Part shown: one piece after another, positions 12,841 through 55,339 of the stretch
How the letters are laid out: every line of letters begins with the position of its first letter
How positions within the stretch are numbered: position 1 is the first letter of the stretch
Assembly: GCA_017654855.1 (NCBI GenBank)
Contig: CM030332.1
Location: 7,254,001-7,318,000, forward strand
Source of the DNA: Podospora anserina
Taxonomy: Eukaryota
Length of the DNA: 64,000 bases
Reading direction: 5' to 3'
Translations under genes and position numbers: made by a program
The notes under the pieces: generated by a model
The model's database searches: none
Seen by the model: only the letters and a program-made list of their open reading frames with translations
Told to the model about the DNA's origin: nothing

Positions 12841-12914
12841 GTACGTTACCCTTCTCGCATCATCAACAGTCACCCTCATCGAGAAGAACATCGCCTTCTA
12901 ACATCATCGCGCAG
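12841..12914 (+). other. Probable 5'-UTR intron of TEF1
   Basis: gtacgt donor, ctaac branch and cag acceptor, ending 44 nt before the ATG. Confidence 0.7.
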
Positions 12915-12942: not shown

Positions 12943-14799
<1,857 letters not shown>

Positions 14800-15603
14800 A
14801 TCATTTCTTCCACCTAAACAGCAAAAACAAAAATTCGCTTCCAGGGACACAGGTCATTGGCCACCGAAAGGAAAGCGTCACGCGATGTGTGTTGGCGCTA
14901 CGGATCTCTTGGCTCAATTTGAGCAATCGGTTATTTGGTATGGGGCACAATTTTGAGGAGGGAAAGGTCATGGGTTTCTGCGGCAAAACTTTCTCATATG
15001 TGCTTTAGTACAAAATAGAGTCCCTTAGAGGTGATCACGAACGTTATGATCTTTTCTACTGTGAATATGTGTGCTTTGGTGTTGCTTGTGATTGTTACTC
15101 TCTCTTGATATGTTGTTGCCTGAGGTCATCACCTTTGCCTCTCTGAAGGTGGTGATGCTTGTCCATGGTGTTGTAAGTTGCGTGCTGGCAAGCAGTTCTC
15201 CAATGATGTCATGCCGTTCTGTGGTTCCACGCCATGATCTTGGCTTGTCTCTTCCCAAGCATCGACTCTCCCCACGTGGGGCCAACAACGAATCCGACAG
15301 GCAGACCGACCTCTTGTTCACCGACGAGTTGAGACCCTCATGCCAATACAAAAGAACACCACCGCGGTCCAGCCATGCTCAAACATGATCGACCGAGCGT
15401 TACCCCTCACTCGTTTGCTTCTCTATACTGACCGCCCAGAAAAATAGCCCTCGAGATGCATCACTATCCACGTCAGCCTCGGGCTTGGCTTCTCGACATG
15501 GTGTTTATAATATTCTGCTGAAGCAGCGTCGATATCCTCCCAGGCTGTCCCAGTTCCTATCGACATGAGCCTCATCTGCCAATAACACCCATTTCGTGTC
15601 TAG

Positions 15604-48254: not shown

Positions 48255-48908
48255 TTAAAGGAGGGCAGCGGCGACGGCGATGACAGCCAGGGCTCCGCCT
48301 GCCTTCTGCATGGTTGCAGCTCCGGCGGTAACTGGCCTTCCGGTTGTGGTTGTGATAGGAGGCGGGATGATGGTTCCGATGGTGGTAGGAGGAGGAGGGG
48401 CCGGGGTGGTGACCGGGGGAGGAGGAGGAGGAGGAGGGGGAGGAGCTGGGGTTTCGGTGACCGGAGGAGGAGGCGGCGGGGGAGGGGCCGGGGTCTCGGT
48501 CACCGGAGGAGGCGGGGGCGGGGGAGGAGGGGGGGGAGGAGGGGCGTGTGTGGGCGTGGTAGCCGTGACTGTCGAGGGGGGAGGTGGAGGAGGAGGGGGC
48601 ACCACGGTCGTGGGAGGTGGAGGAGGGGGAGGAGCCTCGGTCTCCGTCACGGGGCAGATGGTTGTGCTGACAGGAATGGTAACAGTGGTGAGAACCGTCG
48701 AGTGAGCCGGGCAGTCGGGGTTGACTGGTGGGCAAGAGGTGATGGTGCGGGTGGTGGTCGCCCAGACGGTGCTGGTGGTCCACTTGCCCACGAACGGGTT
48801 GTCAACGGGGCCACCGAGAGAGAAGGAAGGTGCCTCGTCGTGATATTCATCTCCGTGGGCCGCCACATGGGCAGCCAGAGTGAGAAGGGTGGCGACTGTG
48901 GTCCTCAT
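48255..48908 (-). CDS. Pro/Thr-rich secreted, probably GPI-anchored cell-wall protein
   Basis: Signal peptide, TITSCPP...CP and TTICPV motifs, polyproline repeats, and a hydrophobic tail after VTAGA. Confidence 0.88.
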   Translation of the reverse strand: MRTTVATLLTLAAHVAAHGDEYHDEAPSFSLGGPVDNPFVGKWTTSTVWATTTRTITSCPPVNPDCPAHSTVLTTVTIPVSTTICPVTETEAPPPPPPPTTVVPPPPPPPPSTVTATTPTHAPPPPPPPPPPPPPVTETPAPPPPPPPPVTETPAPPPPPPPPPPVTTPAPPPPTTIGTIIPPPITTTTGRPVTAGAATMQKAGGALAVIAVAAALL

Positions 48909-50845
48909 TGTGATGGTAGATACCTCTGTTGAAGAACGAGAGACAGGAACGAGTGAATGGTACCGTAGGCACTGAGGGTTAGGAACAGAAAAAGCAGAAA
49001 GGCAAAATCAGAAGAGGGGATGCCCTCTAAAATACTCGTGCGAGGGAACTCCTGGTGGGGTGCTAAGGGGCTGGGAGAATCAGCAACTGCAGCACGGCAG
49101 ACAACAGCAAGCAACAAGGGGCGACGATCGGGACCGTCCCTCCATCACCAAGTCTGTCCAATTCGAAAGCGCAGATCTCTCAGGGGAAGGGGGTAGCAGG
49201 TTTCGCACGAACTTGCTGTGTAGTGTGGTGTACATCATGTATGCCACCTGGTTTGGTGAGATAAACAAGGCCAACAAGGTACCCTTTGCATGTGGGAGCT
49301 TGGCGGCTAAAGAATATAAGGTGTGCCTGGCAATCAACTTCCATATTAAGCTGATCCATGGCCCCAACAGACAAGAAAAACCGACTGCATGACGGAGAGA
49401 GACATGCAGAGCAGCCTGTCCTGGAGGGGGAAAAGACAAAGAGGGAAGAACAGTACCCCTGAGTGGCGTCTTTCGGCCCTTGCGTCAGCTGGTGAGTAGA
49501 GGTGCCGGATGACGCGACGGACGAAGCCTCCCAAACGATGTGACCCCCGATCGTCCAGTCGACAATCGGTGCCTGCATTGGTTGCTCTGGGGCCAGCGTT
49601 GGTGGAGGGCACAGCAGTGTGCCCCTGCATTTGAACACAACCCAAGCTCACGGCGGATGGCTTGAGCTGAGCTTGTTTTCCAACTTCTTCCCTCCCGCCC
49701 CCCCTCGGAAGCAACTGCCCTGGCTTCCCATGGCTGCCGGAGGTTGACACAACGACATCGGCAGTGGTCTGAGAGCAGAGACATTGATATCAACACGGCC
49801 GACCGGGTTGACCACGACACAACGCCGTGGATTATGGTCTGCTTGAACCCGTCATCAGCCTCCCCAAAGTCTGGGGGAAGTGGTTCACCGCAGTCGGCAG
49901 TGCTGTCCAGTGGGAGTTGGACGGCATCCGGTCTAGGAGCGGGGAATCTGCCAGACAACCATGGATGCATCACATTCGTCAGCCAAGGGGAAACACACCA
50001 CCACCACGCAGTGCAGAGCAGGCACATCAACACCCTAAGAGGAAGGAGGGGAAACGACGGCACAAGTGTGATCAGGCACAGTCGACTGTTCGTTGGCTGG
50101 CGACGGCGCGTGGTAAAACCCAGTTGTCCTTCTCCTCATAAGAGGCGTGGAGGCGAGCTTCTCCATGAATTCTTCATTCATCCAAATGGGAATGACGGGA
50201 CCATAGGACGACATGGGCTCAACATTCGGTCGATCAAAGACATCATCTGGGTAGCACAACCATGAGGGCCACCAGTTTCGACGACCAGGTGACACAGTGG
50301 AAGCCTAAGAACACCTCTGTGAAACAAGGGCTTCTGGCGTCTTTTCGGCGTATCCCTGAGGCCAGAGACCGGATACTGAACTGACGTGGCTGATAGAAGA
50401 TAAAAGATTGGGATGAGAAGAAGTTGTCTGCCATGTCTCTTCGCTCGTGGCTGGCTTACTCACCAGGCACCACCCTGCTGAAGATCAATGTGGCTGAAGG
50501 CTCAGAAGGGCCAGCGGGGCGCTGTGGCTGATGCTATGCTCCGCGCCATTGACAGACAGCTTGATGCTGCGACAATTCGGCCACATATTGGTTTCCATGT
50601 TGGCAGATCTGTTAATTTGATGCGCCCGGGTTTCCGGTAACTTGGAATGTTCTGTTGCCCTTCTACACTATCATTAACTGTGCAGGGCGAGATTGTACGA
50701 TTACACAGACCTGCTTATTCAGACACTCCCTACATCATCACCGCCGCTCATCACTTTGCGACTCGCCAAGTTGCGACACCAACATCTGGCAAAGTAAGCA
50801 AATACAGAAGCACAGCAAGAAGGCCTGCCCCGCGGGTTCAGGGAC

Positions 50846-52350
50846 ATGGCACCAGCCGTAGATGCCGCGACCCGGAAAAGGGTTTTGAGGGTCATCTTTG
50901 TTTCCCTGCTGTTAGACTTGGTAAGCATAACATTTTATTTTGTCTTGGGTCTTGGGGGTGCCTGGCACTTGTACGCATGCTGACAGCTCTTACTTGCCGG
51001 CAGCTCTCCTTTACCTTCATCCTGCCCCTGTTCCCGAAACTGCTCGAGTTCTACCGCAACGCTGAGGCACCGCTCGATGCTTCCGCCCCGGCATCCAAGA
51101 CTCTGCTTTCCGGCGTGCTGGGCTACCTCAATGCGTACAAGGCCGCCTTTGCGCGTCCGATTGAGTCCCGATATGATATTGTGCTGCTGGGCGGGGCTCT
51201 GGGAAGCTTGTTCTCGTATGCAACCCGCTTTTTTTGCTGGCGTATGAGTTCTCCTGTGTTGACATTTTGTGTACCCTTTAGTCTTCTCCAAGCTTTTGCC
51301 TCCCCCATCATTGGTCACCTATCTGATCGCCATGGCCGGCGCACTGCTCTTCTCGCCAGCATGGCAGGCAACATTCTCTCTGTCCTTCTTTGGGTTGTTG
51401 CTGTCGACTTCCGAACCTTCCTCGCCTCCCGAGTTGTAGGCGGTCTCTCCGAAGGCAACATCCAGATCGCTACCGCCATTGCAACCGACATCTCCGATGA
51501 CACCTCCCGCGGCTCCACCATGGCCCTCATCGGCGCATGCTTCTCCATTGCCTTCACCTTCGGTCCGGCCCTGGGTGCTTACCTCTCTACGGTTCCCACC
51601 GTGGCAGCCAACCCTTTCGCTACTGCTGCCTCGTTCTCGCTCTTCCTCATCGTTACCGAGACCGTCTACCTCTGGTTCTCTCTTCCCGAGACCCTCCCCA
51701 AGTTGACCGGCGCAGACAAGAAGAGCACCAAGTCGGAGGCCAAGCCGATTCGCAGAACCAACTCTCACTTTCTCCTCAACTTTATCCACTTCACTTTCTT
51801 GCTGTTCTTCTCCGGCATGGAATTCTCTCTGCCCTTCATGACGTATGATCTGTTTGGATATTCCTCGGCCAGTAATGGTCGCCTGCTTGGCTATGTTGGT
51901 CTTGTTGCCTCTCTCCTCCAGGGAGGTGTCACTCGCCGTCTTCCACCGCTCCTCTCGGTCAAGACTGGCGTGTTGGCTTGCCTTGCTGCCTTTGCCATGC
52001 TCGGTCGCATCACCACCGTCGGTGGTCTGTATCTGGCTGCGACATGCCTCGCTACCACTTCGGCTACTGTTGTTTCTGGCCTGAACGCCCTGAGCAGTTT
52101 CGAGGCGAGCGAGGATGAACGCGGCAGGAAGCTGGGTGTTATGAGAAGTTGGGGCCAGCTCGGAAGGGGCCTGGGGCCAATTCTGTTCACCAGTGTGTAC
52201 TGGTGGGCCGGGAGAGGCACAGCCTACACCCTCGGTGCGACGGGCATTGCGGTGGTGAGTGCTCTGGTGTTGTTCGGGTTGAAGACGCCACCTGGGTCGG
52301 TGAAGGCCAAGACCATGACCTCGTCGAAGGTGGAGAAGAGTGAGCTTTAG
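50846..52350 (+). CDS. MFS transporter (tetracycline-efflux/MFSD10-like)
   Basis: MAPAVDAATRKRVLRVIFVSLLLDL spliced (intron 50921-51003) to LSFTFILPLFP. MFS motif A GHLSDRHGRR. Second intron at about 51217-51280. Confidence 0.9.
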
Positions 52351-52742
52351 TTGGCCGAGGGGAAGAGGTGAGGTTTCGTTGTATCTATTCTCACGTGAAC
52401 ATGTTGACCATAGACATCTAGTGTGACATTTGGACTGTACCTAAACATGAGGAAACAACAAGGGTTTTTTGCTCTCTCTCTCTCTCTCTCTCTCTTTGCG
52501 TGGCTCTCTTCAGGGCTTCCAGAACGACAGACGAGGTTCCAAGTTGACACCTGCGGAGAAAAGATTAGGTTCTGCCATACATGCCCCCCTATCCATTCTC
52601 AAACACCAGAATTTGGACCCCGGGAAGCCTCTCAGCGCCCCATTATCCATTTTATAGATAAGGTACACTCTCCACGCTCTTCCCCATCCCAACCAGCCAG
52701 CCGTGCCTTCCACCTGACCAAGTGTCGTCGTTTCCACCAGGT

Positions 52743-52820
52743 ACCACGTTCCATAGACTCACCACGTTCCATAGACTCACCACGTTCCATAGATTCACCA
52801 CGTTCCATAGACTCAACACG
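52743..52820. repeat. 18-nt tandem repeat (accacgttccatagactc), about 4.3 copies
   Basis: Directly visible. The third copy has one C>T change. Confidence 0.95.
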
Positions 52821-52875
52821 GTACTTAAACTCTAGCACCCGCCACCCAAAGCAACAAAAAAGTGGTCTGCGTGCA

Positions 52876-53010
52876 GCCCTCGTGGAGAAATGGTAACTCG
52901 TCAGCCTCCTAAGCTGAAGACTGCGGGTACGTTAGGGGTTCGATCCCAGCTGGCACCACATTGAAAATTGACCAACAGTTGAGAAATAGGTTCGAGTCCC
53001 GTCGGCGGCG
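52876..53010 (+). tRNA. tRNA-Arg (anticodon CCT) interrupted by a 63-nt intervening sequence in the T-arm
   Basis: Exons 52876-52926 and 52990-53010 form a 72-nt cloverleaf: acceptor GCCCTCG/CGGCGGC (one C:C mismatch), D arm GAGA-AATGGTA-ACTC, anticodon arm TCAGC-CTCCTAA-GCTGA, variable loop AGACT, T arm GCGGG-TTCGAGT-CCCGT, discriminator G. Confidence 0.88.
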
Positions 53011-53023
53011 GTGTTCTTCATCA

Positions 53024-53028
53024 TTTTT
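53024..53028 (+). terminator. Pol III oligo-T terminator of the tRNA-Arg gene
   Basis: TTTTT starting 14 nt after the discriminator base. Confidence 0.65.
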
Positions 53029-53692
53029 GACTCTCTCCTTGTGTTTCTCATACAATTCATTTTTGCCTGCGCCCAAGTCTTGAGCCCGTTGAAGAATCGG
53101 GTGCTCACGTGAGCTCCTTGTCGAAGCTTACATAATGCACTACCTTCCAAGACTGCTGGTTGGCCAAAGACGAACCACCACACCACACCACACTAGCTTC
53201 ATCGGGAAGAGAGACCGAATGGACATTGACAACTGATACGATGCCTTTGTTGAGGCTCATGTTCACATCACATATTCCTTCGGCTCTTTCTTTACGGCCC
53301 ATGATGACACAGCGGATCTTACGAGCTTCCCCATTCGACGCTTCAACCACGCCTTTGCTGACCCGCGAGATGGACTACAAGTGGTGATCCACTCATCACG
53401 GGACGATTTCGGTCCATACGCCGGGCAGACTCGGCCCCCACGCCGAAGCGTATCACCACAGCTCCCATCATCGGAATCACATCTTGATCCGATTGATGAG
53501 TGACTCTGGATCACTGCGGGGCGCTTACACTCCTGGACGGACAGCCACCGCATATCGCAAACCTAAGAAGCAACATTTTGGACGGGCAGGTTCAGCCATA
53601 AAGGTCAGTCGTAGTCCTTGGTTACACGTTAGAATCATAGAATACAACATCTTACACCTTCCAAGATGGCAGCTTGTTCCATATCACGAGTC

Positions 53693-55339
53693 ATGAACCA
53701 TCTTCTGATCCAACTCGTAGCCTTTGCTTGGCTTTCTGAGTCTCCTGCATGGGCGCTCAGCAATGCGTTTGATGTCCGAGAAGCTAGTATCGACAGTGTG
53801 CACAATGCCTTGTTCACCCAAATCACTACCTGCAGAGAGATTGTCTCGGCGTTCATCGCGCGTGTCGAGGAGTTCAACCCAACTGTCAATGCCATCATCT
53901 CGCTGAACCCAGAGGCGTTGTCGATCGCGAACAAGCTGGACGAGCGGATTGCCGCCGGCAACGTCACGGGCTCGCTTTTTTGCATCCCAGTGGTGCTCAA
54001 GGATAACTACGATGCTGTCGGGACGAACACAACGGGGGCTTGCCTTGACCTTGCCAACAGCAAGCCGTTGGAGGATGCCCCGACCGTCACAGCTCTGAGA
54101 AACGCCGGTGCTGTCATTCTCGGCAAGGCAAACCTCCACGAAATGGCTCTTGAGGGCTTGACCGTCTCGTCTCTGGGCGGCCAGACCGTCAACCCGTACG
54201 ACAAGACTCGGACGCCAGGAGGAAGCAGTGGGGGGGCTGGAGCAGCGGTGGCCTCCAACTTCGCCATCTTTGGCACGGGGACTGACACGGTAAACTCGCT
54301 GAGAAGTCCTGCCAATGCGGGCTCGTTGTTTAGTTTTCGCCCTACGAGGGGCCTGATTTCTCGTGCCGGAGTGATCCCCGTCAGCTTCACACAGGACACT
54401 GTTGGCGCGATTGCTCGCAATCCGAAGGATCTGGCTGTTGCGCTGACTGTTATGGCAAGTGTGGGATTTGACCCCAATGATAACGTCACGGCCTTGGTCC
54501 CGCCAGAGGTGCGGGGCAGGGACTATTCAGCCTCGTTGTATGGTGGTAGTCTGACGGGTCGACGGTTCGGTTTTCTAGACGGCTTCTTGAACCATACCGC
54601 CTCTGCCGAGACGACTCCGGTCAACGATGTCATGGCTGACATGGTAGAAAAGCTGAAAGGAGCCGGTGCCACAGTTGTCAACATCACCGAATCCATCTAC
54701 AACACTGTCACCCTTGCAGCCCTCGACGTCCAAATCTACGAGTTCAGGGAGGTCCTCGACGCCTACCTCGCCCGGCCACGACTCGGCGGCTCCCCTCGCC
54801 CAGGCAGCTTCGCCGAGCTGTACAACAGCGGCAGATTCCTCGTCATCCCGGGCCAGTCAGGCATGATTCGATCCTCCCTTGTCTCCTCCACCGCTAACAC
54901 AGCCTATCTCGACTCCCTCCGCAAAATCCAGGACCTCACCCAAGCATTGGACGCAACCTTTGTCAGGAACAACCTCGACGCGTTGATCTATCCCCAGCAA
55001 AAAAACCTCGTCGTCAAGATTGGCTCCCCGTCTCAGAGCGGGAGGAATGGGATTCTGGCCGCGTTGACTGGGCGGCCGGTGGTTCACGTACCGGCGGGCT
55101 TCTCGCCTCCGTCGGAGGACGCGCCGATTGGTGTGCCGATAGGGATGGAGATACTGGGGAGGCCGTTTGCGGAGGGGTTGCTGTTGAATATCGCGAATCA
55201 TATTGCTGAGAAGTTTCCTGTGAGGAGGATGCCGCCGTTTACTAATGGGACGGTGGAGGCGAGGGCGTATGAGAGTGTGCCGGTTATCAGGCCGGATACG
55301 GGGAATATTCCGGGGGTGTATCCTATTGGGGTGTTCTGA
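53693..55339 (+). CDS. Secreted amidase-signature family enzyme
   Basis: Signal peptide, PVVLKDNYD, GGSSGGAG and GTDTVNSLRSPA (Ser-cisSer-Lys triad). Confidence 0.93.
   Translation: MNHLLIQLVAFAWLSESPAWALSNAFDVREASIDSVHNALFTQITTCREIVSAFIARVEEFNPTVNAIISLNPEALSIANKLDERIAAGNVTGSLFCIPVVLKDNYDAVGTNTTGACLDLANSKPLEDAPTVTALRNAGAVILGKANLHEMALEGLTVSSLGGQTVNPYDKTRTPGGSSGGAGAAVASNFAIFGTGTDTVNSLRSPANAGSLFSFRPTRGLISRAGVIPVSFTQDTVGAIARNPKDLAVALTVMASVGFDPNDNVTALVPPEVRGRDYSASLYGGSLTGRRFGFLDGFLNHTASAETTPVNDVMADMVEKLKGAGATVVNITESIYNTVTLAALDVQIYEFREVLDAYLARPRLGGSPRPGSFAELYNSGRFLVIPGQSGMIRSSLVSSTANTAYLDSLRKIQDLTQALDATFVRNNLDALIYPQQKNLVVKIGSPSQSGRNGILAALTGRPVVHVPAGFSPPSEDAPIGVPIGMEILGRPFAEGLLLNIANHIAEKFPVRRMPPFTNGTVEARAYESVPVIRPDTGNIPGVYPIGVF

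Follow-up and report, generated by a model that had tools for sequence, protein, structure and literature searches.

A genuine mRNA-type intron of 63 nt (U2-type, GT-AG) splits the T-stem of a tRNA-Arg(CCU) gene in Podospora anserina, and it is missing, to the nucleotide, from contigs of two presumed RNA sequencing runs. The gene lies in a stretch of 64,000 nt from contig CM030332.1, to which we refer as a whole as the window, and its features are collected in Table 1. We found no prior description of a spliceosomal intron excised from the body of a tRNA gene, for any tRNA. Whether the locus produces tRNA-Arg(CCU) by a route that depends on the spliceosome is a separate matter, and we regard the chances as evenly balanced. 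The spliced molecules seen are long transcripts that run into a neighboring amidase gene, and the evidence has to be weighed with this in mind.

Table 1. Features of the interrupted tRNA-Arg(CCU) locus and its surroundings (positions are those of the window unless a contig is named)
Feature	Position	Strand	Basis or remark
MFS transporter ORF	ends 52350	+	upstream of tRNA
Long transcript containing the tRNA	52764..54000, continuing past 54000 into amidase gene	+	RNA contigs; strand inferred from two GT..AG joints
tRNA-Arg(CCU) exon 1 (acceptor 5' strand, D-arm, anticodon arm, variable loop, T-stem 49-52)	52876..52926	+	ARAGORN on joined form; Rfam RF00005
A-box-like element, tRNA positions 8-19	52883..52893	+	read by eye against the consensus
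Anticodon CCT	52908-52910	+	within exon 1
GT-AG intron in T-stem, 63 nt, between G52 and G53	52927..52989	+	RNA contig joints, absent from DNA run X1
5' splice site GTACGT (context CGG GTACGT)	52927..52932	+	sequence; Fusarium consensus
B-box motif GGTTCGANNCC, perfect, inside intron	52937..52947	+	strict motif search
Branch-site-like TTGAC, TTRAY class, predicted branch A at 52971, 18 nt before 3' splice site	52968..52972	+	sequence
3' splice site TAG, then G (YAG/R)	52987..52989	+	sequence; RNA joint; Fusarium consensus
Gene's own B box, completed by the intron's last G	52989-52999	+	strict motif search
tRNA exon 2 (G53, T-loop, T-stem 3' strand, acceptor 3' strand, discriminator G73)	52990..53010	+	ARAGORN on joined form; motif search
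T5 run, Pol III terminator-like	53024..53028	+	13 nt after G73
Second T5 run	53060-53064	+	sequence
Second leader intron, 62 nt, GT..AG, ends directly at amidase ATG	53604..53665	+	joint in 3/3 presumed RNA runs
Amidase-family gene	53666..55339	+	Pfam PF01425, E 4.5e-77; ORF
Uninterrupted tRNA-Arg(cct) gene	L001 1250-1323	-	AT-rich metagenome contig, unrelated context, another organism

Joined in silico, the two exons give a molecule of 72 nt that ARAGORN calls as tRNA-Arg(cct); its anticodon stem and its T-stem, the latter around TTCGAGT, are each of 5 bp, and the anticodon loop reads CTCCTAA. The anticodon sits in a loop of 7 nt, and the invariant nucleotides U8, A14, G18G19, U33, U54U55C56, A58, and G53-C61 are present. 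An initial annotation, made from the sequence without database searches, had placed the insertion between G52 and G53 of the T-stem and had described a clean 72-nt cloverleaf once 52927-52989 was removed. The placement is borne out by the sequence and by the call on the joined form, and ARAGORN accepts the spliced sequence as tRNA-Arg(CCU), but the cloverleaf is not entirely clean, since in the acceptor stem C4 is mismatched with C69, beside a U5.G68 pair. The annotation had also expected standard tRNA finders to miss the gene or to call it a pseudogene. ARAGORN in its default mode makes no tRNA call on the unspliced DNA of the window. The Rfam model RF00005 reaches 30.9 bits over 52876-52940, against a gathering score of 29, with a T arm improvised from intron sequence onto the intact 5' two thirds of the gene.

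An uninterrupted counterpart supplies the state before the insertion. Scanning metagenome contigs with a pattern taken from the end of exon 1 returned a single locus, L001, where an unbroken tRNA-Arg(cct) gene is identical to the joined tRNA over 40 contiguous nucleotides, from position 24 to position 63, spanning the junction after position 51. The two genes have the anticodon arm, variable loop, and T arm in common and differ in the acceptor stem and D arm. Because the identity crosses the junction, both parts belong to a real tRNA-Arg(CCU) sequence into which, compared with L001, the 63 nt have been inserted. The same exon-1 pattern turned up no orthologous locus among the metagenome contigs. 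The tRNA reading is more than a chance resemblance, since it draws on the identity to L001, on a gathering score reached by the 5' part alone, and on the presence of the joined form in RNA contigs.

The insert has the signals of a short fungal intron. We took as marks of a U2-type fungal intron a 5' site of the form GTRNGT, a CTRAY or TTRAY element 10-40 nt before the end, a terminal YAG, and a short length, and against the Fusarium consensus the insert shows GTACGT, TTGAC at -18, TAG followed by G, and 63 nt. The consensus comes from 2022 curated Fusarium introns, for which the available part of the source gives 5' site frequencies of G100 T99 A74 A42/C32 G93 T66, CTRAY branch sites in 91% and TTRAY in 4-5%, YAG followed by R in 94%, and lengths from 42 nt upward (PMC5677156); the TTRAY branch class is thus a minor motif. 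The GTACGT start, the TTGAC with its A at 52971, and the TAG end had all been read correctly from the letters in the initial annotation. It had also noted that four registers give one product, and contig alignment agrees, as three letters fit on either side and the GT..AG register lies at cut +1. Its remark that the donor is common to a TEF1 5'-UTR intron stands in part, in that GTACGT does occur at 12841, which is about 240 nt before the EF-1alpha G1 motif (13084), but the TEF1 intron itself is only a candidate. In length, the insert is close to the neighboring leader intron of 62 nt. Introner-like elements, which multiply, would be expected as several near-identical copies in a genome; further copies of this insert were found neither within the 64-kb window nor in any other contig of the DNA run X1.

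Evidence for excision comes from assembled public sequencing runs. The stretch is contained in 20 runs of one organism, of which 14 hold all sampled words, one a fraction of 0.93, and five a fraction of 0.68. We aligned to 52000-54000 the contigs of X15, X16, and X18, which come from three studies and are presumed to be RNA, together with those of X1, a run of DNA size; the RNA status of X15-X20 is a guess, and X17, X19, and X20, which stand at 0.68 like the intron-lacking X16 and X18, were left out of the counts. Contigs from X16 and X18, from two studies, join 52925 to 52989 and so skip exactly 63 nt, with GT..AG at cut +1, while the X15 contig retains the intron. The joint is therefore present in two of three presumed RNA runs and in none of the one DNA run. 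A second joint, 53600/53663 (62 nt, GT..AG, cut +3), is found in all three presumed RNA runs and is absent from X1. Two GT..AG segments that are kept in DNA are thus lost, one of them only in some runs, and for this reason we take X15, X16, and X18 to behave as transcriptomes and the joints as splicing. The GT-AG excision that had been predicted at this junction is accordingly seen in two independent studies, and we infer that the intron is removed by the spliceosome. The X15 contig, in which the intron is retained, shows that this removal is not uniformly efficient.

A joint of this kind might instead reflect strain DNA that lacks the 63 nt, or an assembly artefact, rather than RNA processing. 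The kind of material in X15, X16, and X18 was guessed, and contigs drop variants, show no transcript ends, and cannot separate one transcript from several overlapping ones. Yet X16 and X18 lack the second GT..AG segment as well, the one that ends at a start codon, and X15 lacks only that second segment; two independent studies agree on the joint; and words from the intron are present in all 14 runs that hold every sampled word (X1-X14). The contig totals point the same way, at 18-28 Mb for the presumed RNA runs against 37 Mb or more for the DNA runs. We consider this explanation very improbable.

Eukaryotic nuclear tRNA introns normally lie at position 37/38 and are removed by the tRNA endonuclease, and two readings of the locus would bring it closer to that norm. 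Under the first, the endonuclease would remove the 63 nt at a bulge-helix-bulge, and the GT-AG ends would be a coincidence. Introns at non-canonical sites in the T region of tRNAs are described for C. merolae, C. crispus, and the G. theta nucleomorph in the available part of one report (PMC13578239). We searched for two 3-nt bulges flanking a 4-bp helix at the cut sites. None was found over the four registers, the finding that the initial annotation had said would count against spliceosomal excision being thus absent; the central helix reaches at most 3 of 4 pairs, and in the minimum-free-energy fold the cuts do not fall in paired bulges. The 5' site, branch, and 3' site moreover match the spliceosomal consensus, and excision occurs in a long RNA together with that of a second GT..AG intron, so that the endonuclease is a most unlikely agent. 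Under the second reading, the gene would hold a canonical intron of 65 nt after position 37 (52912-52976), as in the tRNA-Arg(cct) that ARAGORN calls with the -i option over 52876-53010, its anticodon loop interrupted by 65 nt. The product of that call, however, has poorer stems (a G.T in the anticodon stem; one A.C mismatch plus one T.G pair in the T-stem), the call discards a stretch identical to a bona fide tRNA-Arg(CCU), and the joint in RNA is at 52925/52989 rather than 52911/52977; we give it scarcely any credence. Even when these two readings and the artefact are taken together, they seem to us quite improbable.

The spliced molecule departs from what the initial annotation had pictured, a spliced Pol III pre-tRNA, and is instead a long + strand transcript that reaches the amidase gene. 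The joined contigs, of 2.5-5 kb, start no later than 52764, which puts at least 112 nt ahead of the tRNA; they traverse the tRNA and enter the amidase ORF. The upstream limit is set by an assembly break in a tandem repeat and is not taken for a transcript start, and X16 is uncovered over roughly 52663-52745. From 52764 onward, the leader measures 777 nt after splicing and contains nine upstream ATGs with short ORFs of 5-81 codons; the first upstream ATG, at 52890, falls inside the tRNA D-arm. Such a leader would be a poor one for a messenger, and the transcript may be a non-coding or regulatory isoform. Since splicing is seen in a long + strand transcript that loses a further intron as well, the tRNA gene may simply be embedded in a normal Pol II RNA on which the spliceosome works. 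Perhaps the long RNA, with its nine ATGs, is a by-product and its intron just a leader intron, unrelated to any tRNA function.

Some smaller features of this region were also recorded. The second leader intron ends in AAG, which belongs to the rarer RAG class of 3' sites. An 18-nt tandem repeat, ACCACGTTCCATAGACTC, occupies 52743-52820 (4.3 copies, 95% matches), 56 nt upstream of the tRNA, and all assemblies break within it. The X18 contig is one 18-nt unit short, so the copy number varies between strains; the repeat could be a promoter element of the long transcript. A CACCA repeat of 3.6 copies lies in the leader at 53176-53193. X15 departs from the window at two sites, 52652 (T>G) and 52845 (one nucleotide deleted). 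Across the four aligned runs (X1, X15, X16, and X18), there are zero differences within the tRNA or the intron, over sites too few to speak of constraint.

The signals expected of a Pol III gene are all in place, and the B-box motif is present twice. The T5 terminator that the initial annotation had placed after the tRNA is there, and no run of four or more T lies inside the intron. A strict search with the B-box motif GGTTCGANNCC gave two occurrences on both strands of the 64-kb window, both of them in the tRNA locus. One is the gene's own B box. The other lies wholly within the intron, a feature absent from the first description of the locus, about 10 nt further from the A box than the B box of an uninterrupted tRNA. 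By chance, the strict motif would be expected in 63 random bases about 2 times in 10,000. The intronic B box may support the synthesis of a Pol III pre-tRNA.

If the gene works, its maturation could proceed along the following lines. A nuclear tRNA-Arg(CCU) gene with A box, B box, and T5 in place, its T-stem split by a U2-type intron, would be transcribed into an RNA from which the spliceosome removes the intron to give a complete cloverleaf. RNase P and RNase Z would then cut the cloverleaf out of the spliced RNA. A Pol III pre-tRNA could be spliced likewise, as is pre-U6 in Schizosaccharomyces pombe. The tRNA would be produced only after spliceosomal splicing, and intron retention would block it.

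Alternatively, the tRNA gene may have been disabled where it lies in a leader. It would have been struck by an insertion, or have gained an intron, as part of a Pol II transcription unit, leaving an ordinary leader intron and a young relic, with AGG read by other tRNA-Arg genes. The host unit might be the long amidase leader, a non-coding RNA upstream of the amidase gene, or a transcript reading through from the MFS gene. We hold this to be a substantial possibility, if one somewhat short of even. The spliced molecules seen are long transcripts only, and the junction words could derive from the long RNA alone. Active tRNA genes act as roadblocks to Pol II; seen against this background, a Pol II transcript that crosses the gene unhindered would suggest that the Pol III machinery occupies it only weakly. 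Retention of the intron in X15 and the nine upstream ATGs of the leader are likewise in keeping with a relic, as is the acceptor-stem mismatch, since C4.C69 beside a U.G pair could mark early decay or destabilize the tRNA. Against this, the exons are otherwise intact, with their 40-nt perfect match to a gene of working type, and so are all Pol III signals. In the DNA run X1, a single unbroken contig of single-copy depth spans the tRNA and is the only one to match the exons, so an identical uninterrupted copy elsewhere is unlikely, although diverged paralogues may exist. Cleavage of the spliced RNA by RNase P and RNase Z, driven as it is by structure, would also probably be hard to avoid.

The origin of the insert bears on the same question. 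A piece of the intron at 52935-52958, from the B box onward, is laid out, as read by eye, like positions 52-73 of another tRNA, with a T-loop, a 5-nt stem strand, a 7-nt acceptor strand, and a discriminator. A direct repeat of 3 nt, GGT, flanks the 63 nt. Because of this layout and the flanking repeat, it is reasonable to suppose that the insert is filler DNA copied from another tRNA gene during the repair of a break, and both features would fit the disabled-gene reading. Tandem duplication was considered separately as a source of the intron. A scan of offsets 50-79 gave no signal at 63, and the scores for a duplication from exon 2 with its trailer and for one from exon 1 were reached by 254 and 475 of 2000 shuffles, respectively. 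Only the B-box core stood out (53 of 2000 shuffles), and duplication was rejected beyond the B-box motif.

Codon usage in the window gives some idea of what such a tRNA would be worth. In the long ORFs of the window, AGG is the commonest arginine triplet, at 159 of 637 in a crude stop-to-stop sample that includes some non-coding frames, and a CCU tRNA should therefore be useful. The EF-1alpha ORF (13630-14800, + strand) uses only CGT and CGC for arginine (13 of 13), with no AGG. With AGG the commonest arginine triplet of the other long ORFs, an EF-1alpha that keeps to CGT and CGC is what a scarcity of the AGG-reading tRNA would lead one to expect. Among the other ORFs of the window, one of 250 aa at 48255-49007 (- strand) has extended runs of proline (PPPPPPPP with TT/VT spacers) where the GC fraction is 0.71, and it resembles a secreted or wall protein carrying a proline-rich repeat domain.

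A bolder version of the working-gene reading would make this the fungus's working, spliceosome-dependent tRNA-Arg(CCU) gene and would treat splicing or retention in the amidase leader as a switch that inversely couples the supply of the AGG-reading tRNA to amidase expression. If so, the spliced leader would fold as a tRNA and be cut by RNase P and RNase Z, releasing the tRNA and beheading the mRNA, while the leader that keeps its intron would stay whole. We think this unlikely. Were this the working gene, with its tRNA formed only after removal of the B-box-bearing intron by the spliceosome, tRNA would become the second Pol III-type class of RNA, after U6, known to need mRNA-type splicing.

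A tRNA gene with an excised spliceosomal intron would join two splicing systems that are taught as separate, and an intron in the T arm would explain why such a gene is missed by standard tRNA finders. The locus provides a natural setting in which to ask whether tRNAs can mature with the help of the spliceosome. Even as a relic, it would offer a dated and clean spliceosomal intron whose ends coincide exactly with an insertion and whose ancestral state is known, which makes it useful for the study of intron gain. To our knowledge, it is essentially only for fungal U6 that mRNA-type introns have been described among Pol III-type genes, and a full-text literature search, with most subscription journals and supplements outside its reach, returned no published spliceosomal intron in a tRNA gene.

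Several known systems resemble this locus in part. The U6 snRNA gene of S. pombe, a Pol III gene for a small structured RNA, likewise contains a spliceosomal intron with a B box in it, according to the available part of a later paper (PMC5855946, citing Tani and Ohshima 1989 and Frendewey et al. 1990). Here, in contrast, the host is a tRNA, with no link to the spliceosome's active site that might explain the insertion by reverse splicing, and the spliced RNA is known from a long transcript of Pol II type alone. Ectopic tRNA introns of red algae, cryptophyte nucleomorphs, and archaea lie in the T region, as this one does, but those described in the accessible text (PMC13578239) have motifs resembling a bulge-helix-bulge and are cut by the tRNA endonuclease, whereas the present intron has GT, branch, and AG signals and no such motif. 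With respect to the transcript, the mascRNA of MALAT1 is a tRNA-shaped unit in a long Pol II RNA from which RNase P cuts it, an arrangement like the one seen here, where release is a possibility. The tRNA-Sec of Trypanosoma brucei, made by Pol II, is also a tRNA unit in a Pol II RNA. As far as the partial accounts at hand describe them, both of these are without a spliceosomal intron, unlike the gene in the window. Fungal U3 snoRNA genes, in the portion of the source available (PMC5832005), share with it an mRNA-type intron in the gene of a structured non-coding RNA, though the class of RNA differs.
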